A stretch of DNA of 64,000 nucleotides, taken from positions 41,914,001 through 41,978,000 of the forward strand of contig NC_087251.1 in assembly GCF_037042905.1 (NCBI RefSeq), read 5' to 3'. The DNA is from Lytechinus pictus (taxonomy: Eukaryota). The notes beneath the pieces were generated by a model, which saw nothing but the letters and a program-made list of their open reading frames with translations, ran no database searches and was not told the DNA's origin. Shown here one piece after another: positions 10,437-62,419 of this stretch (position 1 is its first letter; the number at the start of each line of letters is the position of its first letter). A program made the translations under genes and the position numbers.

Positions 10437-13400
10437 CTGTATAAGAAACAAATACACCCCCCAAAAAATATATATATCAGTCATGGGTCCCTATTGTTGC
10501 ATCGATATATATTCATCTAACAGAAAAAAAATCTTTCAGCTGGTCTACATTTGGAAACAAGGTGGTTCGCGAACCAAGAGTCTCACCTGATTTTACAATC
10601 AATAAAACAGGCAACATGATCTTTTCACTCGTAGATGACCTTTAACCCCATCATTCTCATGAGGTCACATGTGGTATTACCCAATGATCATTTATGCCAA
10701 GTGTGAAAACAATTGATGCAGAAAGAAAGAAACGTTAAGAAAAGTTAAATAAAAATTAACACTTTTTTAAACAGACCAACGGACTAACAGGAAAAGTGAT
10801 TACTACGTCTCTGCTGAACTTTGTTCAGGCAAGACAAAAAAAATGAGAACTGAAATAAATGATGATGTTAGTGATGTTGATGATAATTCTGAGTTTGATG
10901 ACGGTGGTGAAGGATGATGACATCAACGGCAAACACTGACAGTGACCATGATGATGATAATGATGATATGGTGATGATGGATGATAATGATTATGATTAT
11001 GATGACAGTAGTGGTAGTGGTGACGATGATGATGGTGATGATCATCATGATGATGATGGTGATGATGAGGATGATGGTGATGATGATGGTGATAATGGTA
11101 ATAATCAGTGATGATGATGATGGTGATGATGGTGATAATGGTAATAATTAGTGATAATGATGGTGATGATGATGATAATGATGATGATGGTGATGACAGT
11201 AGTGATAGTGGTGATGATCATGATAATGATGATGATAATGATAATGATGGTAATGATGATGATGGTGGAGATGATGATGGTGATGATGATGATGGTGATG
11301 ATGATGATGGTGATAATGGTAATAATCAGTGATGATGATAATGATGGTGATGATGATAATGATGGTGACGATGATTATGATGATGGTGATAATGATTACA
11401 GTAGTGGTAGCAGCGATGATGATGATATTTGAGGAGCTCACCTTTCCATTTATAGCAACGGGTCTATCAAACGAGGCGTGCATTCCCAGGATTGCTGACT
11501 GAGGTGGGTTGATGATAGGGGTACCAAACATAGAACCAAATACACCTCCATTACTTATTGTAAAGGTACCTCCATCCATGTCTTCAACTGCTAGTGTTCC
11601 TGATCTGGCCTGGATAGACAAAGAAGATGTGGAAGAAGAGAAAGTGAACCTTTTGTCTGAGAAAAACGATGGATGGAGATTATATAGATCAAAATTATAG
11701 AACATTACTAATTTGTCTGCATTTTGAATTAAGTACAGCATTGTCCTTGTCTTTGTAACAAGAAAATATCACTTCTTCTTTTTTAATAAAAACTGTTGAA
11801 GTTGAATCAAGTTTGCACACATTTGAAATCCGAAGATTTTATGATCTAAGCATGTAATAGGATTTATCGAATTTAATTGACTTGAAATGAACTTTGATCG
11901 TCATTTAATAAAATAAAACTATATATGCTATATAACATACTGGCTCCCACTTCATGCCATATAACCTTTCCTCTGTAATGAATACATTCTAACAATAATC
12001 AATTCAATATCAAACTTAACCTTCTAAACTTGAATCTTTGAAGATTTGAATCTTTTTAAATCTTTGAAAAAATACACTTAAAATTGTTGACACTTTGATC
12101 TTCATTTTTTATAAAAAGAAAACCATTTCTGAACCTTTCTGGTTCCCACTTCATGCTGTATCACTTTTCTCTGTGATCAATACATTCCAACAATAATCAA
12201 TTCACTATCATACTTTACCTTCTATAAACATTTTATAAAAACCTTTTTTGTAAAGTATTTGCAGATTTGAATCTTTTCTGAAAAAGTACAGCTGAAATTG
12301 TTGACACTTTCTTTTATTCAGAAAATTTAGGCCAGCATAAATACCACCCCCCCCCAAAAAAAAAAAAACCCTGATAAATCTATTGCTGTTTGTTGCACCC
12401 CTTTTCTCTGGATGCTTGGCAGAATATTGGGGGGGGGGGGAGGTGTTGGAAGAAGAGAAAATACCTTTTCACCAAGCTCATTCAGCCCCTTCTCAACGTC
12501 CGCAAAGCTCATACCATCAGCATTACGAAGAACAGGAACTACTAGACCCTAAAGGAAGAGAGAGAAATTCAAAAAATATTGTTTCGATTTGACTGCATTT
12601 CATTTCCACATCTCAGTAACAAAAGTATATACAAGTACATGTATAATCATTTATCAACATTACATTACATAAAAACAAACAAATATTTTCCAACATAATG
12701 ATTAACATACATATTATTCTAATTAATATATAATTGGAAAATTTTTACCTGTTTTTAATTATTGAAAAAAAAAGGTAAAGTATAAACATCAACAAATGAA
12801 ATGGGGAAGACTGCCATGTTTAGCTTGGAGCTTGAAATTGATGGAGGCATTGAAATGAAAGGGGGGGGGGGCAACAATCTAGACTCATTCTGCTGTAATG
12901 TAAATGATAGAAAGTCTCAGTCTGCGAATAAAAGTCCGTTTTGATGATATGCACATTGTATGTAAATGGAGAAATGAAAATAAAACAAACCATATTTGAA
13001 AAGAATTACAAATTCATTATATCATATTGAACTGGAAGAGAGCATTTGAATTCTACATTATCTGGCTGAATCTCAACTTTCAGAGCCAGAGATCTCATAA
13101 TTCATAGAATAAATGGGAAAATCATTTCAATCATACCTTAGGAGTAGCCACAGCCACGCTGATGTCAACGTAGTCACGATACACTATTTCATTTTCATCA
13201 ATAACTGTGATAACAAAGGAGTGACAGACAAAATAGAAAATTAAGGTAAACTGGAGATAGCTAGAATGAACAAGATTTAGATGGAAATATGTCTTCAAAG
13301 AGGAGTTAAAAAACATTTGCAAATAGTTGGAAACATCCCTCAAGCTGACAATGATCTGAACATACTGTTTTGACTATGTGTCATAGAAATTGACTATTTA

Positions 13401-16400
13401 TTATTGTCCTGATTTCAAGTGAAAGGTGAAAATGTTTGAATGCAAGCATCAAGTGGATGTGCATCACTGCTGGCACCATATGGTGACAAATATTGGAGAT
13501 GATTTCAAATGACTGTATAAAGCTAAATTATACCTATAAATACTTATAGCTATCATACAAATACACATGAAAATCCATTTTAAATCCCTGCGTAACGAGC
13601 AGTAGAGAATTTATAACTAAATGCTGCTAGGTATGTGTAATGTAGGATTTGACAGAAAAATATGATAAATAATTCAATACAGGGATTTAAATCAGGAGTT
13701 TAATATCCCACATTTAAGCAGCTAAAATAAGCATGAATAAGCACACAATGCATATTCATGCATTTAAGAATGATACAATACTGGATCTTTCAAGTGGCTT
13801 CTGTGCAAAAAAATATCAAGTAACGGGATGTAACCACACAATGATTTCCAATTCTTGTATGACACTGAGCCACAGGGATAGACAAAAAAAGTCGTCCCTT
13901 GAAACTACTTATGCACTGGACATGTAAAACGATTGGATTAAGTTATTTTTGTGGATAGGCACTGATGGCATAAAAGTTGTCAGCCAGTTCTCAGAATACT
14001 GATTTGTGAACAAGATGAAGATATACTGTCTCTATCTGTACATTCAAGTTTTAGGTTTATACAGTTAAGGTAAGAATGTACTGTGTAAGTTAATATATAT
14101 CTTGGTTATTAAGAGACTCGGCATGAGGCTGCATCAAATGGATGATTGGCAGTGCAACCTCTCTAAATACATTTGAGTTTGTTGCTATTACAACTGCTAT
14201 GTTGGGTGGGTTATGACTACATACCTGCATTAACAACGGGCATTTCCTTGAGAGCATAAGATGATGCTTTGACGAAAGCCGACATAAAGCCCAACTTGAC
14301 TCCATGCTTCTTGATGAAAGCATCTTTGTGTTTATTCCTTACCCCTATTATATTGCTATAGATAAGAAGAAATATAATACACACGTCATGTGACTATGTT
14401 GCAACAAATGTACAGATTCTTAATGTAATAGAACTATAACAATAGTCATGTCCGTGTCTTCCCTACATGGGAGGTTTCAGTGGCTTTCCAGAATTCCCAT
14501 TGTTTTTGTCTACGCAGGCATTTGCATTGACCGAAAACCGAGCAGAACATCATACAAGATTAAAATTAGAAAAATAGAAAAATCCATGTTTTATTGTTTA
14601 CAGGGTTGTAATAAAAAACGTTTTTTATAAAAAAAAACAAATAAAACGTTTTTTATTGTTTTAAAACGTTTTAAATCGTTTTAAAACGTATTTTTCCCCC
14701 AACGAACGATGAAATTTTCTGTAAATCAATTAAACTATACATTTAATACTGTATTATTTAAGCTCTTGATGTTTTAAATACATTTTTTGAGTAAGTAAGA
14801 GAAAACTACAATTTTTCTCACTGAATTTCCAAAAGAAAAGTTCATATTTTCCCAAAAATTACTAAATCATTGAAATTGAATGCAAAAAAGTACATTGACA
14901 TTTTATAAGTTTATTCCTCATACATGTACATACATTTGAGTCTTGTCAATCTAGGGGGTGAGAAGAATTTGCACAATGTAAGAAAATGACATAATCTAAA
15001 GACTATGGGCTTTCAAAGCTTGATATCATTTAATCAATATTCTTCATTTCATTTTAATAAATTAAACCAATTTTAGAGCATGAAATACAAGTTTGGGTTT
15101 AAATCTATAAATAAAGCCCTTATTTCTTTAATTGAAGATTTTTAATCAAAATGTTTTTTAGTGTTTGTTTTAACTTTTTTTTTAATATTTCTTATGAACA
15201 GTTTTTTTGGTTAGGTTTTTTTTTAATGGAAATTATTGGCGATAATTTTCCAATCATGTACAAATATTGGTACAGGTACGAATGTTGGCAAAAAATTCAC
15301 ATTGGCTTTATACATGAAATCACGTTATTGAGCAATTCGGGGTCTGACATGCACTTGTGTAATATCATAATCACATACCGATGCATGCATCCCAAAAATA
15401 GTCTTGAACAATATGGCGTGGCCCTGTCCTGCTCATGGATTCATCATAGAAAATTTTTAGGGGGCCATTACGGTCCCCTGGGATTGTTAGGGTTAAAGGT
15501 CAGGTCCACCCCAGAAAAATGTTGATTTTAATCAGTAGAGAAAATTCAAACAAGCATAATGCTGAAAATTTCATCAAAATCAAATGTGAAATAAGTTACA
15601 TGTATGACACTTTAAAGTTTCGCTTATTTTTCACAAAACAGTAATACCAACCATCTCAGTGATATGCAAATGAAAGAGTCGATGATGTTCCTCACTATTT
15701 ATTTTGTTTTTTATTGTTTGAACAATACAATTTCAATTTTTACAGATTTGATAATAATGACCTACTTGACTGACCCAAAAAATGTTAAAAACAATGGTAG
15801 TTCCACATGTTCAGGGAGGAATAAAACTTTATTTCACATGACAATGATAAAATAACGAAATACAAAATAAGTAGTGAGTGAGTGATGTCATTAGTCCCCT
15901 CATTTGCATACCGACCAAGATATCTAATTGTTTTGCATAATTAAGCAAAACTTTAAAATGTCATAACTTTATCATTTTACATCCGATTTTAAAGAAATTT
16001 TCAGCATATACATGTATTTTTCTTGGGGTGGACTGTCCTTTAAGGTTTGCTAGCTGACAATCTTATACTGAATTAAACTACTTTTCTTCATCTTTACGAA
16101 GCGCAATGTTTCACCTGCTTTTGTATGTACCTCAAGAATACAATGTCAATTTTTTCAGTCTATTTGTAAAGTATTTTATGCTTTTGCAACTCCTCCATTC
16201 ATTCAAGTACTACTATTACACATTTGAGCTTATTTTAAATAGTGTTTCTTTCCCTGTCTAAAAAGTGAGCACAACACTCAGATGTTTGTTATAATGAGAA
16301 TATTCTATAGATTGATGTGCACAATTGAACAAGAGGATTTCAAGGAACATGACAAAGTGATGGAGAAAGGGGGATTAAGAAGGAAAGAGTGGTGTTGAAA

Positions 16401-37400: not shown

Positions 37401-40400
37401 TATCTATAAATTCATTGATTTCTTGACAATTTGGTGTGATCTCCTTTGTTTACAAAAGACATTTTGCAAATTTCCTGAAGAAAAAAATTATGACACTGAT
37501 GGATTTCCAGAGTTACGATTGATTGGATCAATCGTAAGTCTTCGTAAGACCCTGGTCTCAAATTAATGTATATTCCATAGTATAATGTATATGTATCCAA
37601 TGTATATTGCATATAAGCAATTTACAGGTTTACAGAGTTTTCTTCTATTTGAACCAATTTTGTAGCTCTCTACTAAGATAACATGTGGGTCGAACACCAT
37701 AACATGGGGGGGGGGGAGGAAACACTGAGCAATGTTGAAACTTGGGAGGGGTGATGTGATGCATGCTTTACCTAGCAAAAAAAAGCTGACAAAAATTTTA
37801 CCTGAAAATGGTTAGGAGAAGTGTATTGATGTGTAGTATTGAACTAAAATAATAAAAATGACAAATTATAATAAAATTTTGTTTACAGTGGAAAATTAAT
37901 TTTGCAGTGACAGATGATAAGTATTTACTATCAAGTAAAACAAAAATCACTGGTTGAGTATATGAACAATTTTTACAAGGATAATATGGCGCTAAATAAA
38001 CAGTATAATATGTTAATGCGATGGAAAGCTGAGTTGCTGAATTCCTACAAGAGTTGTTTCAAAAGAAAGCGATAATTGCAAAATAACAAGAAGAACCAAG
38101 ACAAAGAAGAACAAATTACTGGAGTAACACATGGATCAATGGTGTATCTTAGGAATAATATAAAGTTGAATCATCTTACCTTTATCCCACCTTACATCGC
38201 CCTCTGACACCGACTCGGCAAAAGGAGGTGTTTCTACCACTTTAACTTCATCATCTGAAACACAAAATAAAACAAAACTAGCACATCAATGATGTGGAGC
38301 TCATCGGGCATCTCGCAACGAAATTTAACACATTTAATTTTAGCCAAGTTGACACTGTAGTGAATTACATTGGTGACATAAATTGAGGATATAGAATTGA
38401 AATTGATGAAAAAATGACATAGAAGCATTTTTGTGATCTATGAATAAATTTCATATAAATTAAGCATAAATAATTTTCTAGTCAAAATTTCTCAACTCTG
38501 TGTAGAACCTTGGTAAACCTCATGTACAATGTAGCTCTCAGATGGAACAAAAATAATCAAAATCAATCAAGAAATAAAAAAGTATTTTTGTGAGTTTTTA
38601 AAAAATATGAATAAATGAGTATATTTAATGAGTTTCAAAATTCTGTGTTGAAATTTTGTATCACCACCTCGAGCTATCATATAAAGCAAACAAAATTAAA
38701 ATTGATTTACAAATGAAGAAGAAAAAACATTTTTGTGATATATGAATAAATTTTGCATAAATTAGCATAAATAATTTCCTAGAAAAAAATTCAAAATTTA
38801 GTGTACAAGTTTGGTGAACCTCATGCAGCTCTACCAGATGGAAGAAAAAAAAATCAAAATTGGTCAACAAATAAAGAAGAGGCATTTTCTGTGATTTATG
38901 TATAAATTTTGCATGAATTATCGTAAATAATTTTCTACTGAAAATTTCAAAATTCTGTGTAGAAGTTTAGTGACCCTCATGAAGTTCTACCAGATGGAAG
39001 AAAAATAAAAATCGATCAACAATCAAAGAAGGAGCATTTTATGTTAATTTTTAAAAATATGCATAAATTAGCATATTTAAAGGACAAGTCCACCCCAACA
39101 AAAAGTTGATTTAATAAAAAAGAGAAAAATCCAACAAGCATAACACTAAAAATTTCATCAAAATCGGATGTAAAATAAGAAAGTTATGACATTATAAAGT
39201 TTCGCTTAATTTCACAAAAAAGTTATATGCACATCCTGGTTGGTATGCAAATGAGGAGACTGATGACGTCATCCACTCACTATTTCTTTCGTATTTTATT
39301 ATATGAAATATTAAATATTCTAATTTTCTCCTCATTGTCAAGTGATACAACAATTAATTCCTCCCTGAACATGTGGAATTAGCATTGTTTAATAATATAT
39401 GGTTCAGTCAAGTTGGTCCTTTTTGTCAAATCTATAAAAAATGAAATATTGTATAATTCAAACAATAAAAAACAAAAGAAATAGTGAGTGATGGACATCA
39501 TCGACTGACTCACCTAGTTGTACATATCACTGTTTTGTGAAAAATAAGCGAAATTTTAAAATGTCATAACTTTCTGATTTTACATCTGATTTTGATGAAA
39601 TTTTCAGCACTATGTTAGTTTGATTTTTCTCTATTTATTCAAGTTAGCATTTTCCTGGGGTGGACTTGACCTTTAATGAGTTTCAAAATTCTGTGTAGAA
39701 GTTTTGAATCCCCCATCTAATGCTATCATATAAAGCAAACATAATTGAAATCAGACTTGAAATTATGAAGAAGAAGCATTTTGAAATTCAGTCAACAAAT
39801 AAAGAGGCATTTTCTGTGATTTATGAATTTTGCATTAATTAGCATAAATAATTTTCTACTCCAAATTTAAAAATTCTGTGTAGAAGTTTGGTGAACCTCA
39901 TGAAGCTCTACCAGATGGAAGAAAAAAAAAATCAAAATCGGTCAACGAATAAAGAAGAAGCATTTTATGTGAATTTTTAAAAATATGCATAAATTAATTT
40001 CGCATAACTAAGCATTAAAATTGTTCTAGTCAAAATTTCAAAATTCTGTGTAGAAGTTTGGTGAACCTCATGAAGCTCTACCAGATGGAAGCAAAAAAAT
40101 CAAAATCGGTCAACAAATAAGCATTTTTTGTGAATTTTGAAAAATGTGCATAAATTAGCATATTTAAGAGTTTCAAAATTCTGTGTAAAAGTTTAGAATC
40201 CCCCACCAAGTGCTATCATATAAAGCAAACAGAATTGAAATCGGACTTGAAATGGCAAAGAAGAAGCATTTTGAAATTGTGGACGGACGACAGACGCCAC
40301 GGCATAAGCTCATCTGGCCCTTCGGGCCGGATGAGCTAAAAATGACTATTCTATCCCTTCTAAACCAAGAACATATTTAATGATTATTAGGAAGGTGTTC

Positions 40401-43400
40401 TATACAGTAAGTCTAACTCAATACTTGCCTGAATTAGACAACATAATAACAAAAAGTCTGGCTTTGCCATGATGATATTTTGCTTATACAATTGGAACAT
40501 TCCACTGAATTGGACATTGGACTCATCTGGAATTTCCCTTGAAGGTACATGGTATTCTGGTAGTGTGAGATGTAGGGGTACTATCTTTTACTATTATACT
40601 TACTATAATAATGTGAAGTATGGATTCCTTTTAGATCCCAGATTGGTTGTGACTGGTAGCTTCCTATTGCTGGCTGTATCCTTGTACTTTATAGAAGTTG
40701 GTTGAGCAGAGAGGAAAAAAGGAATATGTAATTTTTAAAAATCCTTTTTAATTTTCTACAAAATGGATCCTCCAAAAATGATTTAGTTAGGAACAATATT
40801 TCAACTGTTCAGAAATAAGTGAAATAAGTGAAGTTAAATATGTCTAGGAAGACAAAATAACTATGCAATCAATCTACAAAGAAGTTGTTTGAGCAGAGAA
40901 GTAACATAGAAACATCCTTAAAAAAGAATTCCCTTTTAATTTTCCACAATATGGATCCCAAATATAATTTAATTAGGAATAACACTTCAACTGTTCAAGT
41001 TAAAATGTACAATGTACTTCTAGAAAGAAGTTGTTTGAGCAGAGAATTAAAACATATTATACAGAGAATTCCCTTCTGATTTCCTACAACATGGACCCAA
41101 AGAAAAAAATTATTTAGTGCAGAGAAAGCATTTTAAATGTTTAGGATATGAGAGTGGGTAAATTCAAAGATGAACATAAAAACACAATAATTATGTACTT
41201 GCAATCTATCATTCTATAGCATTACAAGACCAAGATGTCTTAAATGAAAATCATCCCATCTAAATATAATTGATTTGAATGCTCGAGTGAAACCAAAATG
41301 AAATGATTTTCTCCATTTCCCCTCTAAACAAAAAATTGGTGAATATCAAAATATCTAACCATGTCTAAAATCTATCCTCAATGACCACTGCTTTATCCTA
41401 TGAGGGTAGATAATGAATGATACACACATTAGGGGGCTAATTCTCACACATTACTGTTTGCTTCAGAGGAACCTGTTGGTACAGCATCCATAGTCTTTGT
41501 TAATTCCAAATGATTTCACTTGAATAACCGATAGCATGAGCACACACTTCCAGAGTGCATTTACCCAGAATGGGGAGACTTTCTTTTCTAATCAAACACA
41601 GCACTACTATACCTAACCAAGGGGACGAAGGATCATTTGAGGCTACTTTACAACAACAAAAAATGGGTCAGAGCTGCATTTGATGGAAAGGGTTCCTTCC
41701 CAAGATTTTAAATGAAAAACATATATCACCCCTCTCAATGCAATTTCTCTACTGTCAATATATCCATTTCCCCTGACAATTGTCCTCACTGATGGCTGAA
41801 TTGTATATCGTTTATGGGTGGTATAATATTTGCATTGCATTCTCCACGCTGCTTTGTTCAAACCACTTGAAAGATTAGCATTATACCTTATCCACTATTC
41901 TACAGATCATTGGCCATTGCTGGTCCATGCTTCATTGCATAACGGCATACAGAGATGGAAAATTAATAACATGCTGTATTATCTGCCTAAACTGGCTGTG
42001 ATGGAGGTGAACCCTTGGATGTATTTTCATCTTGTTGCTCTTCTTAATGCATCTATAAAGTTGGGTGTGAATTATTCATGATCTGTCTCACACGAGGGAA
42101 TTTCTGAGCCCCTGCTGCGGCCTTCTTCTGTTATTAATGATCCATGGATGCAAATATGATTACAAGAGAAATATATCAAGGTCTAAGTTTTCCCCCTCTC
42201 TTGCAATCAATAATGCTTTCAACATTGGAAAAAGGGAGGAAGTTAAATGAAAAGCAACAAGTCTGCCTTGGGGACTTTTAGTGTGGTTACTCAGGGATGA
42301 AATTAAAGAGGTGGAATGTAAAGATGAATGGATGAGAGAGATGGTGAGATGAAGTAAATGTATACCTCAGAGCTTGTTGATACTTTGAAAGCTGATTATA
42401 TGCCCTCCACTGACATCCCTCCGATGAAGCTTGAAAAATAAAACCATTTTCACAGAGATTAAGATAAAGGCTAATAAGTTGTATAAAAAAATCAAGGATC
42501 AGTTTAATTAATGTATCCCTTATACTTCAACTTACAGTGTTAAAATACAATCAAAGAAAATTACACAAGAACTTACATATACACGGGATATTTACAAATG
42601 TTTGGAGATACATGTTGAAACCGAGCAATGTTTTCAAGGCCTTTTGCCGGGACCCCCTGCTTTTGCAGGGAACCCTCCTTGACCAGAAGGGTATTCACAG
42701 CTTACTATTAAATAAGCCCTGATAATAACAGGCCGCTACTCCCTTACACCTTCTTAATTGGTTGTTTTTTGCCTGGTGAGCAAATGGTTAACAAGGTAAA
42801 TACAATTATGAACCATACATTTAAGGTTTTATGCAAAAAGCCTAGATATGAATTAATTCTGAAAAGAGGAAAAGAGGGGAAATGGGTTTGTCAGGGTTAC
42901 GTTTCTTGAGGAACTTTAACTTACCACATGTACCTACCATCAGGAGCAGTGATAGGGTGTTTTTATTGGGGGACAGCACAAACTTAAAACAGGGCACTCG
43001 CGTCCCTGCTTAAAACAATGGCCTTTTCCTCAATTGAATAATACTTTAAAGGAGAAGTTCACCCTGAAGAAAAGTTTGTTGTAAAAATAGCAGAAAAAAT
43101 GATAAAAAATACTGGTGAAGGTTTGAGGAAAATCCATTAAAGATTAAGGAAGTTATAAGAATTTCAAGTTTTGTATTTCTGACATCATAAATGAGCAGCT
43201 GTGTGTGTGTATGTGTGTGTGTATTTGAGTTTTGTCAGATGTGCATCAATCAGATATGATTATTTACGTCTGGGACAGACCTTTAACGTCACCATCTGAA
43301 AGACGTGACAAGGGCTCGAACCTCGAACCTCTGCATCCATTTGTAACTTCCCCACAGCTTGGATTACAGGCACATGCCACAATGCCCATATGTTATGTAA

Positions 43401-46400
43401 TATAAAATGCATAAATTTCAAATTTTCAATTGTTTGTGACGACTAATTTTTGTTTTCTTTTTAGGAAGGTGTGTGAAATGATTTGTCTATTGATATACTG
43501 AATGTCACAACAAAACTATTTTCAATTTTCGAAGTAAATTACATTTCATTGATTTGTTATACCATTCGATATTTAGGAAAGCTGCTCGCATATGACGTCA
43601 CAAATCAAATAACTGAAATTCTATTTAATTTTGTATTCTTGGGTGGATTTTTCTCAAACCTTTTACAATATTTTTATTTTTTTTTCTATCATTTTTACAA
43701 CAAACTTTCTTTGTGAATTTTCCCTTTAATAGGGCATTATATTCTTGGACATTTCTTTTTTTTATAGTCATCCTTCCCCTTTCTTTCCTTTTCTTCATCT
43801 TTCCATCGCTACTTGAAAAATCAAATAGGGGTGGTCACCTAACTGCCCCCTCGCAGTACTATTCCCGACTACTAAGGACACCTAAATTTTGATTGGGTGA
43901 TAAGCAAGTTCTATTTTCTTACCTATATTCAACTTGATGTTCCTTGATATGCATACCTACAAAGATATGGATAAATACAAATAATTACTATTTCATAATA
44001 AAAACGAAAAGAGGTTTTAAATCTTTACTACACATTAAGCAAAAATAAAGATCTGTTTTTACCCAAAAAAATCAGCAACAAAAATTACTCACCACTTACA
44101 AAAATATGTAAGACAAATAAATATGGATATATCGAGAGTCAATATTTTGCTAAAGTTAATTAGAATATAAAATATATGTAGGGAAATAGAAAAGGTATTC
44201 CAGAGATTCAAATCTAGTTCTGTCCCTGCCAAAGATAAATGGTTATTTATTATTTTTTTCATTGTATTGATAATTAGACAGTAATATGAATGAGTATGGC
44301 CTTTATTTAGAAATAATACAACATACTGAACTGGAAATGACACAAACCACTATTTTGTTCAGAATCTTATCTATCCGATCATACTTACTCCCTGCTCCCC
44401 GTACGATTGATACTATTTAGGATATGATTACATGTACCCGTCAATATTTCCCTATTTTGTGACAGTTGATGACCATATAGAGTTACCCAAATAAAGGGAA
44501 AATTATCAGAAATGTCACTTGAAATCAATTTTTTTCATGAGAGAATCCATCTTGGAATCTGACATCTAACCTGAGTTGAAAATAGACGGGAGCAACGAGC
44601 GATTCCGCCCTCGTGTGCTTTGGAATCGCTCTCGCAACTGCCTAAAACTGCTATAGTACTGAGCGACTCCCAACATGAAGATCGCTCCCGTCAGCGCCCG
44701 TCCAGTCTCCCACTTATGACTGCATAGTAGTCAGACAGCCAGGCCAGCGAAACAGCAGTTTTTACTTTCATGGATCGTCGAGTTCTGACGTGTAACTGAG
44801 TGGATTTTTTAGAATCACGGGCACGGCGCTTCAGAAAAATGCGTATTGATTTTCAAACTCTCGATATCCTGGGTAGTGGGTACTATTTTTCAAAACGCTG
44901 CGCGGCACCAGCAGGTCATGCTGTACCTTTGATAGAAAATTTTTCCCTTTTTATTGGATTAATTTTGAAGATACCATCCTAAATTTGCAAGAAAATAAGA
45001 TCGTAAACTCTGAAGAAAATCAATTTTTTTTTTCTGAGTACTTTTCTGCGACTACACTTTTGAAATCTGAACTAATTCACTTGGTGCTCTGGATATTTGG
45101 CACAGATCCTGGAATTTTAAGACCGAAATTAGGATTTTCAGTGGGGATTTTTGGTGAGTAAGTCAGTTGGTAGCGATTCGGCATGCAAGTTGAATTTTCC
45201 GACTCATCATCACCTGTGTAATTCCCCTAATTTACCTCCATCCACGTCACTCTGTTGTTCACTAGAGCTAGAAACTTCATCATCATTCTCTTCATCTTCA
45301 AAATCATCAATTTGAAAATCCAAATCTAGATAAACTTCTGGGTTTTCTTTCATTTCGTGATCGAAGTATTCAGTGACAGTGTGGAGAAACGTACCCTCGC
45401 AACAGGTTTTGCATGCAAGTGGAGCTCGACATGGGAGAGCCAATCACGTCTCTCGTACACTCATGCATGTCATCAAAAATCCCCAATTTCGCGGACATAA
45501 TTCTGCGTGTTTGAAGCATTCAGAGAGAGAACTGTATACTATCAAATAACTGAGTTTCATCGGTCTCCATGATAAATGATTTACACCATCGTGTTCTTAT
45601 TTTCTCCTTTAATTTGATATATAATTCTCCATTTTTAGGATTTGCAATATATTTCTACTTTAAAAATAAGCTAGTGTGTATATATATATAAATGTGTGAA
45701 ATTATACGTGTACAACAGCTTTGGCAACTCTTTTATTTAAATATTGTGTGAAAGAAATGGATGAAGAGAAATATGATAGGCGTAGCTTAAATCAAGGTTC
45801 CCCAGAGCTATCTACCCTTTGGAAAATTTGGTGATGCCGAAAAAATGTCTCTGCCGGGAATCGAACCCGGGCCCCCAGCTTTGAACGCCGGTGCCTTAAC
45901 CCGTCTCTGTGGTCTAGTGGTTAAGGCACTGTTCAAAGCTGGGGGCCCGGGTTTGATTCCCGGCAGAGACATTTTTTCGGCATCACCAAATTTTCCAAAG
46001 GGTAGATAGCTCTGGGGAACCTTGATTTAAGCTACGCATACCATATTTCTCTTCATCTATTTCTTTCACACAATATATATATATATAAAACGAGAGGCGA
46101 GAGCTTTACAACATAGTGTATACTTTGCTTCATCCTTGATTCTACTCTACTCTTCACACATATATATATTAAGAAATACATATAAATAGGCCTATGACAT
46201 GCAGAATAAAATGAGATTAGATAAATCATGAAAACTTTTTTATTTGATTTGATTTGATTTGATTTATTGTTTTCTTCTGCATCCATAACATTCGTATAAT
46301 ACATTTTTCATAACATAATAAACATAATATGCTAGCATTTTTGGCATGAATCATAAATAAAGAGTATTAAAAAGATAATTTCAGACAAAAATGATTAACT

Positions 46401-49400
46401 ATATGATATTCACAGTATATTGATGCAGTATAGGACCTATTATTCTTCATGGTCTCCCTCTAACCTCTCTGTAATTTTATTTTGTCTGAAAATTAAGCAG
46501 CTGGTGGATATTTAATTCATATAAATGATATATATTCCTTTTTTTAATAAAACAAATATTATTCAAAAATTTGCATCTTCAATTAATTTCATCGCAGATT
46601 ACTACTCTCACAGGTCACCTTCCTCATTTCATTTCTTTTTTTTTTACTTATTTTTCTCAATACTTTTATCTATTCTCACATTTTTTGTTCTATTTAATTC
46701 ATTATTTTGTCTTTGCAGTATTATAAAATCTTGGGACCAGGCCACTAATAAAACTTCAGAATGTCCGGCCATGATCCTGAATTACATGCAATAATATTAT
46801 GTATCTGTGGAGAGAAAAATAAAACACAGCTCGCTTAATATCTGAATAAAATCATGATTGAGATAATTATTTATGAAACGTATCCTATTCTTGAAAATTG
46901 ATTGCATTACTAAAATATACAAATATGCCTCTGGCAGTCTCGCCTGCATTACGCAATTCGATATAGCAGCAGTGCTGCCTCTGAAAACAGCTAATGAATA
47001 ATTATTCATAGAAGAAAACACTAATATAATAATAAAATATGTCCATTCACCCGAAATGAACTTTGACCATGATCATATGACCTACTTGATTACCCTTATG
47101 TCGATGTTTCATGAGCTAGATCCATAATCTTTCTAAGTTATGATGTCAATTCAACACATACTCCCAAAATGCCAGAGGTCATTAACCTTTAAATGACCTT
47201 TGATCTTGGCCATGCTCCTGAAAGGGTATTCAGAGATACATTGCTGCTCTTATGTCCAAGTTTCATGAACTAGATCCATAAACTTTTAAAGTTATGATGA
47301 CAATTCCTCAAATACCCCTAACATGGCTAAAGTTTGTTGACCCCAAGTGACCTTTGACCTTGGTCATGTGAACTGAAACTCGCATATGATATTCAGGGAT
47401 ACATGGTTGCTCTTATGTCGAAGTTTCATGAACTAGATCCATAAACTTTTAAAGTTATGACAATCCCTAAACAAGTGGAATGCCTCTGGCCGTCTCACCT
47501 GCATCACGCGATTCAATATAGCAGCAGTGCTGATTTTGAAAACTACTATAACTCGCACAAGATGTTCAGTGATACTTGGTTACTCTTATTTCCACGTTTT
47601 ATGAACTAGACCCATACACTTATAGAGATATGATGGTAATTCAACAAATACCCCCAACGTGGCCAAAGTTCATTGACCTTACATGACCTTTGACCTTGAT
47701 CATGTGACCTGAAACTCGCACAGGATGTTCAGTGATACTTGATTACTCTTATGTCCAAGTTTCAAGAGAAAGATCCATCAACTTTCCAAGTTATGATGGT
47801 AATTCAACAGATACCCCCATTATGGCCAAAGTTCATTGACCTTTGACCTTGGTCATGTGACCTAAAATGCGCAAAGGATGTTCAGTGATACTTCATTACT
47901 CTTATGTCCAAGTTTTATGAACTAGACCAACACACTTTCAAAGTTATGGCGGTAATTCAACAAATACCCCAATTTGACCAAAGTTCATTGACCCTAAATG
48001 ACCTTTGACCTTGATCATGTGACCTGAAACTTGCACAGGATGTTCAGTAATACTTGATTACTATTATGTCCAAGTTTCATGAATCAGATCCATAAACTTT
48101 TAAAGTTATGATGGTAAATCTACAGATACCCCCAATTCGGCCAAAGTTCATTGACCCTAAATGACCATTGACCTTGGTCATGTGACGTGAAACTCATGCA
48201 GGATGTTCAGTGTTACTTGATTAACCTTATGTATAAGTTTCATGAACTAGGTCCATATATTTTCTAAGTTATGATGACATTTCAAAAACTTAACCTTAGG
48301 TTAAGATTTTGATGTTGATTCCCCCAACATGGTCTAAGTTCATTGACCCTAAATGACCATTGACCATGGTCATGTGACATGAAACTCAGGCAGGATGTTC
48401 AGTAATACTTGATTAACCTTATGGCCAAGTTTCATGAACTAGGTCCATATACTTTCTAAGTTATGCTGTCATTTCAAAAACTTAACCTCAGGTTAAGATT
48501 TGGTGTTGACGCCGCCGCCGCCGTCGCCGTCGGAAAAGCGGCGCCTATAGTCTCACTCTGCTATGCAGGTGAGACAAAAAACCCTAACATGGCCAAAGTT
48601 TGTTGACCCTAAGTGACCTTTGACCTTAATCATGTGACCTGAAACTCAGGCAGGATCTCCAGTGATACATTATTACCCTAATGTCTCAGTTTCATGAACT
48701 AGGTCCATATACTTTCGAAGTTATGACATTTAAAAAACTTAACCTTGGTTAAGATTTCGATATTGATTCCCCCAACATGGTCTAAGTTCATTGACCCTAA
48801 ATGACCTTTGACCTTGGTCATGTGACCTGAAACTCAGGCAGGATGTTCAGTAATACTTGATTACCCTTATGTCCAACTTTCATGAACTAGGTCCATATAC
48901 TTTCCAGGTTATGATGACCTTGGTTAAGATTTCAATGTTGACGACGCCGCCGTTGCCGTCGGAAAAGTGGCGCCTATAGTCTCGCTCTGCTATGCAGGCG
49001 AGACAATAACTAGAATGAAGTAATCAAATCTACTGCAGAGTTTGTTTTATTAATCATCATTTTATTAATTCCTTGGAATGCCGGGACCAGTTTCATCACT
49101 GCGTGGCGGACATACACTGTCCCTGGGCCGAGAGTGCCTGCAGTCCGTGCCAGAGGTCCGTGCATACAAGCGCACTTTGCACAGTCATAGCTGCACAGCT
49201 CAGAATACGCACAGACAGTGCGCAAAAAGGAAACAAAATTGCACTTGTCTTCATTAAATTTGTGGTGATTCTTGCAGCTGTAGAAAGCACATCTATCTCC
49301 ACCACCCATAATTAAGAAGAAAAGTGATGTTAGTTTCTGAAACAAATATGACAAGACGTTTACTTGAAGAAAGCAAAAAGTTGGCTGCGGGCGTTGATCG

Positions 49401-52400
49401 TATTTTAATACACTATGGAAATCGTACACTTTATTGTCGGCTGCTTGCGTTCGCATGATCGCATCCAGACAATAGCGGCACTATTGCTCCCTTTTTGATC
49501 CCATGATCCTTTGCGTGAATCTATTTGCGATAAGGTCTATTTGTATTTCACGGACGAGTCCTGGGCTCCAGCCCGTGAGCTCCCTGGGTTTAGTTTTAGA
49601 CCAAAAGCTTCGATCTCTGTTATGTTGGCTGTTCCGCTGAACTCCGTTGGCTCCACACACCAAATACAGAGACAGAAATTCTAGTTCGATCTGTACAGGG
49701 ACTCAATGGCCATATTGTTATTTATTAAGTTCGGATAAAACAGGGAAGAAAGGTTGCACAACAGCCGAAGTCACTGTTTTTTCCCCTTTTAAGTTTATTT
49801 TTCCCCGTTTTGGTGCATTTCAGATCAATATGGAATAATAATCTTTATTTTGGTACAGTTCCTTTTAAGGCCCGGCCACCACGCCCACGGCCCGGCCAGT
49901 CGTACTTGCACTCAACTTGCAGGCTAGGGCCCTAGGTAGATATCACAGCCGGTTTGACTTTACGACACTCTCGTATCTGTCACCGTGTTAAATTGGTGAG
50001 ATCAATAACATAATTTCTACAAACACTTTTTTTTAAATAACAAGTGGAATGCCTCTGGCCGTCTCACCTGCATCACGCGATTCAATATAGCAGCAGTGCT
50101 GATTTTGAAAACTACTATAACTCGCACAAGATGTTCAGTGATACTTGGTTACTCTTATTTCCACGTTTTATGAACTAGACCAATACACTTATAGAGATAT
50201 GATGGCAATTCAACAAATACCCCCAACGTGGCCAAAGTTCTTTGACCTTACATGACCTTTGACCTTGATCATGTGACCTGAAACTCGCACAGGATGTTCA
50301 GTGATACTTGATTACTATTATGTCCAAGTTTTATGAACTAGACCAACACACTTTCAAAGTTATGGCGGTAATTCAACAAATACCCCAATTTGACCAAAGT
50401 TCATTGACCCTAAATGACCTTTGACCTTGATCATGTGACCTGAAACTTGCACAGGACGTTCAGTAATACTTGATTACTATTATGTCCAAGTTTCATGAAT
50501 CAGATCCATAAACTTTCAAAGTTATGATGGTAATTCAACAGATACCCCCAATTCGGCCAAAGTTCATTGACCCTAAATGACCTTTGACCTTGGTCATGTG
50601 ACGTGAAACTCATGCAGGATGTTCAGTGATACTTGATTAACCTTATGTATAAGTTTCATGAACTAGGTCCATATATTTTCTAAGTTATGATGACATTTCA
50701 AAAACTTAACCTTAGGTTAAGATTTTGATGTTGATTCCCCCAACATGGTCTAAGTTCATTGACCCTAAATGACCTTTGACCTTGGTCATGTGACATGAAA
50801 CTCAGGCAGGATGTTCAGTAATACTTGATTAACCTTATGGCCAAGTTTCATGAACTAGGTCCATATACTTTCTAAGTTATGCTGTCATTTCAAAAACTTA
50901 ACCTCAGGTTAAGATTTGGTGTTGACGCCGCCGCCGCCGTCGGAAAAGCGGCGCCTATAGTCTCACTCTGCTATGCAGGTGAGACAAAAATGACCTACAC
51001 GGTAAAATAATAGTATGATATACAAAATTATAACATTTAAAACTTACATTGTGTACTTTGAGGTCCATAAAAATCCATTTTACAGAGACGATATGGTCAC
51101 TCGTACATCCCCGAAAAAGTTGCCATCTTGAAAATATCGAGTTTCGCGAGATTAGACTTTCGGGTTTTATTTTCTCTCTCATATCATCGCCATTCGATGA
51201 AACATCAAATTTCTTTCTTTGCGAGCATGATTTCGAATTTGAAAAGTTCTTTTGATGCTGGAAATATGAAACGGGTGAGCAAAATTGTGTTTTTTAAAGT
51301 GATTTTTTGTTTGCATAATCCCTGATTATCAATTTTTGTTGGGCCTTTATTTATCTTTTATTTCTCAGGCGACGTTTTCTTGACACCGATATATGAATTA
51401 ATATATCGGTGAAAGCAGGTTTTTTCTTCGGGCGATGGTCATTTTCCGACTTCACAAATGTGTCGCATATCGCCCTCAAAGCCTAAACGCAAGGCGATGT
51501 CGGACTAATGAGTCATAATTTTTCTCGAGTTTGAGCGAGGTGAACTGGCATTAGTAATGACCCTTTTGAAATTTTTGTTTGATATAAATAACAATTCGTA
51601 CATCTAATGAATAACAAATGTTGCATTCAACTTGTGCAGTGAGGTGAATGCATGGATCGAGCTCTGTGTGTCTCTCGCTAGTGCAGTGGTCACCGGTACG
51701 GTAGAGGGGGGGCACATTTTCGTTTTAAGTTTTAACAGCATTTTTACATTACATATTTTAATTGTGCCTCTCAAAGGGGGGGGGGCACACTTTTGTTTTA
51801 AGTTTTAACAGCATTTTTACATTTTTAATGTAAAATGCTGCCTTTACACTTGTACCCTCCCCCCTTTTGAAAGTCACAGCATATGTTTTTAATAGGGATA
51901 TATTTTTTTTTTTTGCTTTTCAAATTTTACCTGGACGAAATGAAATGCATTTTTCGGTGAATTTTAAAAAAATTTTTGCTTGTCAAATTTTCTTTCCAAA
52001 AGGAAAATGTGCCCCCCCCCCCTTAGAAAATCCTGGATACGCCCCTGCACATGACCATGTAAAAATTCTCAATCTTATTCTTAATAGTACAATTATCAGA
52101 CACAGATCCAAGGATGGAGGAACGGCCTGGGCATGCACCCCCCACCCCCAAGATCGACATTAGGGAGAAGCTCAGAAAGAGCTGTTGACCTGCTCTTGAC
52201 CCTTTCAACAATTTCTTTTTTTTTTACTTCTCCCCCCTTCATGCAGGTATATCCTGGACCCGCCTCTACTTTGCAGCCTTTGAACAGAAAAGCTTACACA
52301 GCTTGTAATACACAGTCATACACATGACCTCACTTCATATCTTTTGCTCTCCCCCCCTCCTAATAAGCCTGAATCTCCCCACTTCTCCCCACTTGCAGCA

Positions 52401-59999: not shown

Positions 60000-61035
60000 A
60001 GAAGGGCAGGGGCGAAGCAAATAAATGCTAATCCAGTGGTCACTTTTTGCTTTGTTTCTAATGTATAGACCCTGCTAGCTAGGTAGGCCTATACTATAGA
60101 CTGTAATCTGTATGGAAGCTGGCCTGATACTGAAAGTGATACGTCATAAGATTAAGAATGATATTACTTAGTTAGACTCTCGACTATATTAAGTTATAAC
60201 CGTGATAACGGCTCCTGGCCCAGACAAATATGAGACAGACAGACCCAAACACTAGTGTCGTCTCACTCTCAGAGTCAGAGTATAGATCTAATATCATCAG
60301 TGACAGCATGCACTTGGTCTTGATGAAAATGAAATGAGCAAAAAACATTTTTTTTTTAATTGAGAGTGAGGCCAGTGTAACTAGGGAGTAGGGCCTAGGG
60401 GTTTACATTTTTTGTGGGGGGGGGGGGCAAAGTGAGCGAAGATATTGCTGATCCTGTTAGAAATGGAAATTTAATTTTGTGAAAGAATTTTACATAGACC
60501 CTTACTTTAGTATTGAGAAAGTTTATTTTTACTCCTAAGTTTCATTTTTTCCCTGTTATTTATTTATTTATTTTTTTTTTTGGGGGGGGGCATGGAACTT
60601 AGGGGATCAATTAAAGGCCCCCCCATCTATACAGAAATGAATAGGATCTAGTTCCTCAATGTTAGAAGGAGGATGAATTTCGGACATGCCTCCAGAAAAA
60701 CTTATACTTGGGGAAAAATGTAAATCAAAGAATAAGATTAAAAATGAAATTAGATATGAGAAAAATTGAGTAGACAAAAGTATGAGGCATTTAATGTCGA
60801 AGATGCTAAAATTTGTCAAGAAGTGTAAAAAAAAAGATAAATAAGATGGAAAAAAGACAAGAAAGAGTGAAAAAAGTGTACAAATGCCCCTATAATTTAA
60901 TATATGAGCTTCCACCCTGCAATGACTAAGCAAATGCAATCTATTATTAGAGCATCGGTGGTAGTATTTGTCTCATCCACCAGCACTAACATCTAGCCAC
61001 CTAACTTGCCAACAAAACAATTACCGAGCATTTTC

Positions 61036-62339
61036 TTGTCTCACCTGCAGAGACTAGGCGCCGCTTTTTCGACGGCGGCGTCAACACCAAATCTTAACCA
61101 AAGGTTAAGTTTTTGAAATGACAGCAGAACTTAGAAAGTATATGGACCTAGTTCATGAAACTTGGCCATAAGGTTAATCAAGTATTACTAAATATCCTGC
61201 CTGAGTTTTAGGACACATGACCAAGGTCAAAGGTCATTTAGGGTCAATGAACTTAGACCATGTTGGGGGAATCAACATCAAAATCTTAACCTAAGGTTAA
61301 GTTTTTGAATTGTCACCATAACTTTGAAAATATATGGACCTAGTTCATGAAACTTGAACATAAGATTAATCAAGTATTACTAAACATCCTGCTTGAGTTT
61401 CACATCACATGACTAAGGTCAAAGGTCATTTAGGGTCTATGAACTTTGGCCAAATTGGGGGTATCCGTTGAATTACCATCATAACTTCGAAAGTTTATGG
61501 AACTGATTCATGAAACTTGAACATAAGAGTAATCAAGTATCACTGAACATCCCGTGCAAGTCACATGATTAAGGTCAAAGGTCAATGAACTTTGGCCATA
61601 ATGGGGGTATCTGTTGAATTACCATCATAACTTTTGAAAGGTTATGGATCTGACTCATGAAATTTGGACATAAGAGTAATCAAGTATCACTAAACATCCT
61701 GTGCGAGTTTCAGGTCACATGATCAAGGTCAAAGGTCATGTAAGGTCAATGAACTTTGGCCATGTTTTTTTTTGGTTGAATTACCATCATATCTCTGTAA
61801 GTGTATTGGTCTAGATCATAAAATGTGGACAAAAGAGTAACCAAGTATCACTGAACATCTTGTGCGAGTTTCAGGTCACATGACCAAGGTCAAAGGTCAA
61901 TTTATATTGGCCATGTTGGGGGTATTTGTTGAATTACCATCATAACTCTGTAAGTATATTGGTCTAGTTCATAAAACTTGGACATAAGAGTCGTCAAGAA
62001 TCACTGAACATCTCATGCCAGTTTCAGGTCACATGACCAAAGTCAAAGGTCATTTAAGGTCATTGAACTTTGGCCATTTTAGAGGTAATTATAAGATAGC
62101 TGTCATAACTTTCAAAGTTTCTAGATATATTGTATAAAATGTGGATATAGGGGTAATCAAGTATCACTGACAATTTTTAGGTCACATGATCAAGGTCAAA
62201 TGTCAATGAACGTAGTATTGTATCATTATATGAATGGTGTTTTTTGTGAATAATTATTTTATAGTAGTTTTCAAAGTCAGCACTGCTGCTATATTGAATC
62301 GCGTGATGCAGGTGAGAGCGCCAGAGGCATTCCACTTGT
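61036..62339 (-). mobile_element. HINE-like element (same family as 47471-48580), inverted
   Basis: Reverse-complement termini and ggtcaaaggtca units. Confidence 0.85.
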
Positions 62340-62419
62340 CTACTTTTGAGTTCTCAACACCAAGTGTCTACTGAGGAGACTACTATAGGGCATGAAACAG
62401 GCCCAAAACGAACAACAAC

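Follow-up and report, generated by a model that had tools for sequence, protein, structure and literature searches.

A decayed insert in a sea-urchin intron is probably a 7SL-headed SINE that arose independently of Alu

Is the Alu-like head of a short insert in a sea-urchin intron a true piece of 7SL RNA, and is the insert one copy of a SINE family? In the accessible parts of two papers, 7SL-derived SINEs are given only for Euarchontoglires, hagfish and the shrew mole, and all of these carry both ends of 7SL (PMC7245038, PMC13023118). The sequence-only reading that drew attention to the locus was right to name Euarchontoglires and hagfish as hosts, but it omitted Urop of the shrew mole (PMC13023118). 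We found no 7SL-derived SINE from an invertebrate in the open-licence PMC and bioRxiv literature, searched by titles and the starts of abstracts; Repbase, Dfam or supplementary files may hold one. Within the 64-kb stretch of DNA analysed (the window), the insert occupies 188 bases of the minus strand at 43387-43200, and its earlier placement agrees with the sequence. It is best explained as a decayed element that joins the 5' Alu domain of 7SL to a tRNA-like half with a B box, a piece of Deu domain, a hairpin and a (CA)n tail (Table 1), and that is likely one copy of an Alu-independent sea-urchin SINE family. To this reading as a whole we assign a probability of roughly 0.78.

Table 1. Parts of the insert and of its surroundings, in positions of the window
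Feature	Position	Strand	Description or basis
Head, very probably 7SL-derived	43345..43387	-	5' Alu domain, 7SL positions 4-46
Sub-features of the head: helices 3 and 4, U-turn motif, A-box region	43386-43377 (A-box region)	-	
Spacer and tRNA-like 3' half	43310..43344	-	variable-loop-like stretch, then T arm with B box
Deu (Nin) SINE body domain, 5' 38 bases	43272..43309	-	by-eye match to SINE2-7_EBu and AmnSINE1_HS
3' segment with predicted stem-loop (about 43272-43235)	43222..43271	-	candidate LINE-recognition signal
(CA)n tail	about 43200..43221	-	sequence
Palindromic MITE-like element	43038..43740	.	arms 43038-43200 and 43580-43740, 74% identical over 155 bp
DLST (dihydrolipoamide succinyltransferase) intron holding the MITE and the SINE	42431..43923	-	tblastn of P0003

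The likeness of the head to 7SL, which had been claimed from the letters alone, holds against a metazoan 7SL gene, L029, with 31 of 43 bases identical at 7SL positions 4-46 (72%); identity falls to 7/34 at 7SL positions 47-80. L029 is a complete 7SL gene (270 bits in Rfam) that comes from another animal and is not the 7SL of the host. It was obtained by scanning a 16-base seed from the head over about half of a metagenome collection, which yielded 117 loci, three of them true metazoan 7SL genes. The head and these three genes, L029 included, have in common one extra base relative to the Rfam model. Because L029 was reached through the seed, only the 26 flanking positions were scored; at these, 14 bases match and a further 10 differ by transitions (binomial p 0.0015 for the matches). 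For comparison we used the other seed-bearing loci: removal of 20 duplicates left 97 distinct contexts, and removal of L029 and the 7SL-like locus L018 left 95 unrelated controls, which reach at most 10 matches and at most 20 matches plus transitions over the same 26 positions. The fragment in L018, around positions 601-616 of that locus, has 16/26 matches outside the seed and no Rfam match at E 0.01; going by its sequence, it is possibly a piece of a 7SL pseudogene. Across the whole head, 10 of the 12 mismatches to L029 are transitions (p 0.0005).

Scores that span the full head point the same way, each with its own limit. The local score of the head to L029 is 40, a value inflated because the reference was chosen through the seed; the next tile of the window scores 23 and 60 random 128-kb sequences score at most 27, and against the seed-independent Rfam consensus the head, aligned by eye, scores 35. 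When a 56-base cut-out of the head was submitted to Rfam, positions 1-50 of the Metazoa_SRP model came top of 4227 families with 12.6 bits and an E value of 0.057, which is weak because the 56-base stretch was picked after the fact; a scan of 1.7 kb around the insert returned no SRP match. By eye, 31 of 42 model positions (4-45) are identical to the Rfam consensus; the head carries one additional base, and 5 of the 11 differences have the form expected of CpG decay, as had been proposed. The first 4-5 bases of the head could be sequence of the host MITE. From these alignments we consider it very probable that the head derives from 7SL, well beyond chance. The head might otherwise be the decayed A-box half of an ordinary tRNA-headed DeuSINE that happens to resemble 7SL, an explanation that draws on the tRNA-like B box and T arm and on an Rfam match that, taken alone, lacks significance. 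Such a coincidence is at odds with the test that left out the seed, with the excess of transitions and with the scores of random sequences, as well as with the lack of an ARAGORN tRNA and a 7SL match that begins at position 4, at the 5' end of the element; we judge it very improbable.

Much of the 7SL fold can still be drawn in the head. The insert keeps 6/8 pairs of helix 3 (L029 keeps 7/8), 3/3 pairs of helix 4 and all three loop-loop pairs, two of them Watson-Crick and one G-U, and it retains the U-turn motif of the SRP9/14 site; of the closing helix only 1/3 pairs are left. The double change at pair 8-19 can be explained as two CpG decays and is thus no evidence for selection on the helix pairs. 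With no CpG left in the head and an A-box region identical to L029 at 6/10 bases, this copy is probably dead as a mobile element.

The similarity ends at about 7SL position 46, and no 3' strand of 7SL was found in the insert. Of 2000 shuffles, 902 did at least as well as the insert against 7SL positions 47-100, 1875 against 251-299 and 1861 against 101-250, in a test that uses one decayed copy and a non-native 7SL as its reference; a likeness to 7SL 47-61 (11/15 over 15 bases) does not rise above shuffles either. The sequence-only reading had overlooked that the insert carries nothing of 7SL beyond the 5' Alu domain (7SL 1-46), unlike every described 7SL-derived SINE. The insert works like a SINE1 and has the 5' head homologous to 7SL RNA by which SINE1 is recognised. 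It does not have the two-strand Alu architecture, and its 72% identity covers 43 bases only. This is shorter than the 60 bases over which SINEBase requires an identity of 60% or more to tRNA, 5S or 7SL; the SINEBase definition also calls for at least 100 interspersed copies (PMC3531059).

Downstream of the head, the proposed composite of 7SL, tRNA and Meta parts stood for the 7SL head and for a tRNA-like half with a B box; the body resembles Deu and not Meta. The Pol III B box lies at 43322-43312, as had been stated. A 7-base word does recur beside it, but the description of the box as partly duplicated does not stand: a 5-bp stem (43325-43321 with 43313-43309) encloses a 7-base loop that contains the B box, and the apparent duplication is therefore more simply a variable loop and a T arm. 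The tRNA-like mascRNA model of Rfam draws the same T arm, at a non-significant E value of 0.63. Over 22 of 31 columns, aligned by eye and picked after the fact, 43338-43309 is identical to the tRNA head of BivaMeta-SINE1. ARAGORN called no tRNA at the insert, and Rfam gave no tRNA match on the spacer and B-box stretch. The B box does not come from 7SL positions 76-86; it falls in the T-arm-like stem, within the stretch of low identity to 7SL.

The body looks like the 5' end of a Deu domain and has, by eye, no evident match to the Meta consensus. Compared by eye with Fig. S4 of PMC7245038, it is identical to the Deu domain of SINE2-7_EBu at 29/39 and to that of AmnSINE1_HS at 26/38 positions, a likeness of 68-74% that is limited to the first 38 bases of the domain. 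An earlier comparison of the body with positions 766-800 of the window proved weak, at 25 matches over 38 columns and a score of 19; among 852 tiles, at least 15 scored higher. That stretch is Deu-like and belongs to a different SINE-like remnant at about 690-815 on the minus strand.

The hairpin predicted in the 3' segment is marginal (-7.2 kcal/mol, z -1.88, with 11 of 200 shuffles equally good), and no LINE with a matching tail was found within the 64-kb window. The (CA)n tail is present as described, at about 43221-43200. There are no T4 runs internal to the insert, and the first lies 68 bases downstream. No direct repeat adjoins both ends, in agreement with the earlier remark that no target-site duplication (TSD) is visible; the direct repeats that do occur in their vicinity are AT-rich and lie out of register by about 14-23 bases, and we rejected them as candidates.

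The insert sits in a host MITE, as had been noted: a palindromic MITE-like element encloses it. The SINE interrupts this element at the inner end of one arm, and because the symmetry of the palindrome picks up again on the far side, the 188 bases are an insertion into the MITE. The gap between the arm and the resumed symmetry is about 7-11 bases on the side of the insert and about 35 on the other, so that a small deletion at the insertion site or an asymmetry of the host element is possible. By tblastn, DLST exons on the minus strand lie at 43956-43924 and from 42430 downwards, which places the MITE and the insert in an intron, with the insert in sense orientation. The nearest protein, P0003 (XP_063957583.1), is 92-100% identical at 13 of 14 aligned stretches, and the remaining stretch runs into an intron; P0005 (XP_781522.4) is a more distant DLST match. 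We take the two to be Lytechinus and Strongylocentrotus sea-urchin proteins, respectively. The gene has two candidate first exons on the minus strand, one at 45295-45233 (the P0003 model) and one at 58708-58601 (matching the N terminus of P0005), and the start of P0003 may reflect either an error of the gene model or an alternative exon. The CpG observed/expected ratio is 0.45 for the host intron and 0.56 for the whole gene, against 0.57 and 0.77 outside it, which gives no clear gene-body signal.

An Alu-like head might also have entered the assembly as human Alu contamination or by mis-assembly. The insert lies within a MITE that itself occupies a DLST intron, the exons of the gene are in order, its extra base relative to the Rfam model is that of the L029 gene, and its sequence runs on into Deu, which is not part of Alu; on these grounds contamination is extremely improbable.

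The window holds further repeats of other kinds. At 45790-46030 lies a near-perfect palindrome of two head-to-head tRNA-like units in which ARAGORN calls a tRNA-Leu (45903-45971); this is a tRNA-derived foldback element and not a tRNA gene. A second palindromic MITE family, of ~600 bp, has three copies (899-1505, 15493-16023 and 39073-39676) that are 76-86% alike. A tandem unit of ~160 bp forms arrays in both orientations, in several places within 46925-50990 and 61033-62342, and at 10825-11430, also in a DLST intron, a long microsatellite of degenerate (CAT)n type gives rise to spurious His/Met-rich ORFs.

Only one copy had been reported from the window, and we likewise found no second one in its 64 kb. 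None turned up among the 117 metagenome loci, from about half of a collection not expected to contain sea-urchin DNA, and a 22-base motif from the tail had 0 matches in genome_contigs and viral_contigs, which are not expected to contain it either. A match at 38240-38263 was rejected as a second copy, being the start of a DLST exon. These counts would also suit a one-off chimera, in which reverse transcription began on the 3' part of a tRNA/Deu SINE and switched to the 5' end of 7SL RNA without founding a family, and template switching is a recognised source of chimeras (PMC7245038). We hold such a single event to be improbable, and think it quite likely that the insert belongs to a real multi-copy SINE family.

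How might such a family have arisen? The parts follow one another (7SL 5' domain, tRNA half, piece of Deu, hairpin and microsatellite) as they would if the template had switched from a tRNA-headed Deu SINE to 7SL, so that the 5' end of 7SL took the place of the A-box half. Heads made of 5S and partial tRNA by template switching are a precedent (PMC4824008), and the origin of the hagfish SINE1 has been modelled likewise (PMC7245038). Intact copies would be transcribed by Pol III from a hybrid promoter, with the A box of 7SL and the B box of a tRNA. The two boxes are 64 bases apart in the insert; in human 7SL the spacing is 70 bases.

Once transcribed, the RNA may use its 7SL 5' domain to bind SRP9/14, which would park it on ribosomes that make a LINE protein. 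A LINE of the CR1/L2 or I/Nimb type would then recognise the 3' hairpin and the CA tail and reverse-transcribe the RNA into new sites; in bivalves, such SINEs are reported to have partners of the CR1, CR1-Zenon, L2 and Nimb types (PMC11481361). The SRP9/14 site comprises the first ~50 nt of 7SL, and mutation of the U-turn lowers Alu mobility by 88% (PMC11581171). The head stops at the border of this binding site, as delimited in that paper. Because the captured piece of 7SL coincides with the site, and in view of the effect of the U-turn on Alu, we favour SRP9/14-mediated docking on ribosomes. The odds seem slightly better than even that SRP9/14 binding matters for the mobility of the element. 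Helix 5, which folds back and closes the Alu domain (PMC8137916, PMC10450188), is absent from the insert, and this counts against docking.

A real 7SL-headed family could also have taken from 7SL nothing but a promoter, with the head as an A-box donor, no role for SRP9/14 and mobility that depends on a LINE-type 3' end. The 3' Alu strand required for the closed fold (PMC8137916) is missing, a LINE-like hairpin in the tail could suffice for recognition, and a young family would retain the 7SL fold by descent alone. Against this, the captured piece extends about 30 bases past the A box and stops just at the SRP9/14-binding border, and around the U-turn the insert and L029 agree at all 16 bases, although these bases are also the search seed. 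We regard a pure promoter capture as possible, at distinctly less than even odds.

The element differs from every system with which we compared it. The hagfish SINE1-1_EBu (Ebu1-1) shares with the insert a 7SL head on an older tRNA-SINE chassis, a microsatellite tail and independence of Alu, and it is mobilised by a non-L1 LINE, as the sea-urchin insert would be (PMC7245038). Ebu1-1 combines 96 bases from the 5' end of 7SL with the 3' end, and it has the B box of 7SL itself, a bipartite RTE tail with (AAC)n and TSDs of ~17 bp (PMC7245038). In the insert, 7SL is confined to positions 1-46, the B box is tRNA-like and followed by a Deu piece, the tail is (CA)n and a TSD is lacking. Alu/FLAM, B1, Tu and Urop resemble the insert in having the 5' end of 7SL, including the A box and the U-turn motif for SRP9/14, and in CpG decay; they differ by having both 7SL ends around a central deletion, poly(A) and the use of L1 (PMC13023118). 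Neither the poly(A) tail nor the TSD of the Alu, B1 and Urop type is found in the insert, which ends in (CA)n with no abutting repeat.

DeuSINEs with hybrid heads (AmnSINE1, with 5S rRNA plus partial tRNA, and the sea-urchin SINE2-3_SP) have the 5' Deu segment that the body of the insert resembles, and their heads likewise unite a partial tRNA with another small RNA of foreign origin, but their donor is 5S or tRNA where that of the insert is 7SL (PMC4824008). The Deu piece is also short, at 38 bases against the 70 of the shortest described and the 70-120 bp of invertebrates (PMC4824008). Among the MetaSINEs (SINE2-1_SP, SINE2-2_SP and BivaMeta-SINE1), the tRNA head of BivaMeta-SINE1 resembles the 3' half of the insert, and BivaMeta-SINE1 likewise ends in (CA)n; MetaSINEs have a 66-bp Meta domain after the head, and the insert has none.

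A 2026 paper confines 7SL-derived SINEs to supraprimates, hagfish and shrew moles and argues that they can arise only through one specific deletion in the centre of 7SL (PMC13023118). We put forward tentatively, at a little under even odds, that the sea-urchin element represents the first 7SL-derived SINE family of an invertebrate and the first whose spread relied on no more of the Alu domain than its SRP9/14-binding 5' part, lacking the 3' strand and having a hybrid 7SL-A/tRNA-B promoter, a Deu body and a non-L1 partner. Its spread would show either that capture of SRP9/14 without the closed Alu fold suffices to favour retrotransposition, or that the tRNA-like half replaces helix 5. If this is true, a sea-urchin family built on 7SL 1-46 would be the fourth independent origin of 7SL-derived SINEs and the first outside vertebrates, as well as a counter-example to the central-deletion rule (PMC13023118). 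It would then offer a natural experiment that sets SRP9/14 binding alone against the complete closed Alu fold in ribosome-coupled retrotransposition, a question that could be addressed in a laboratory embryo model.
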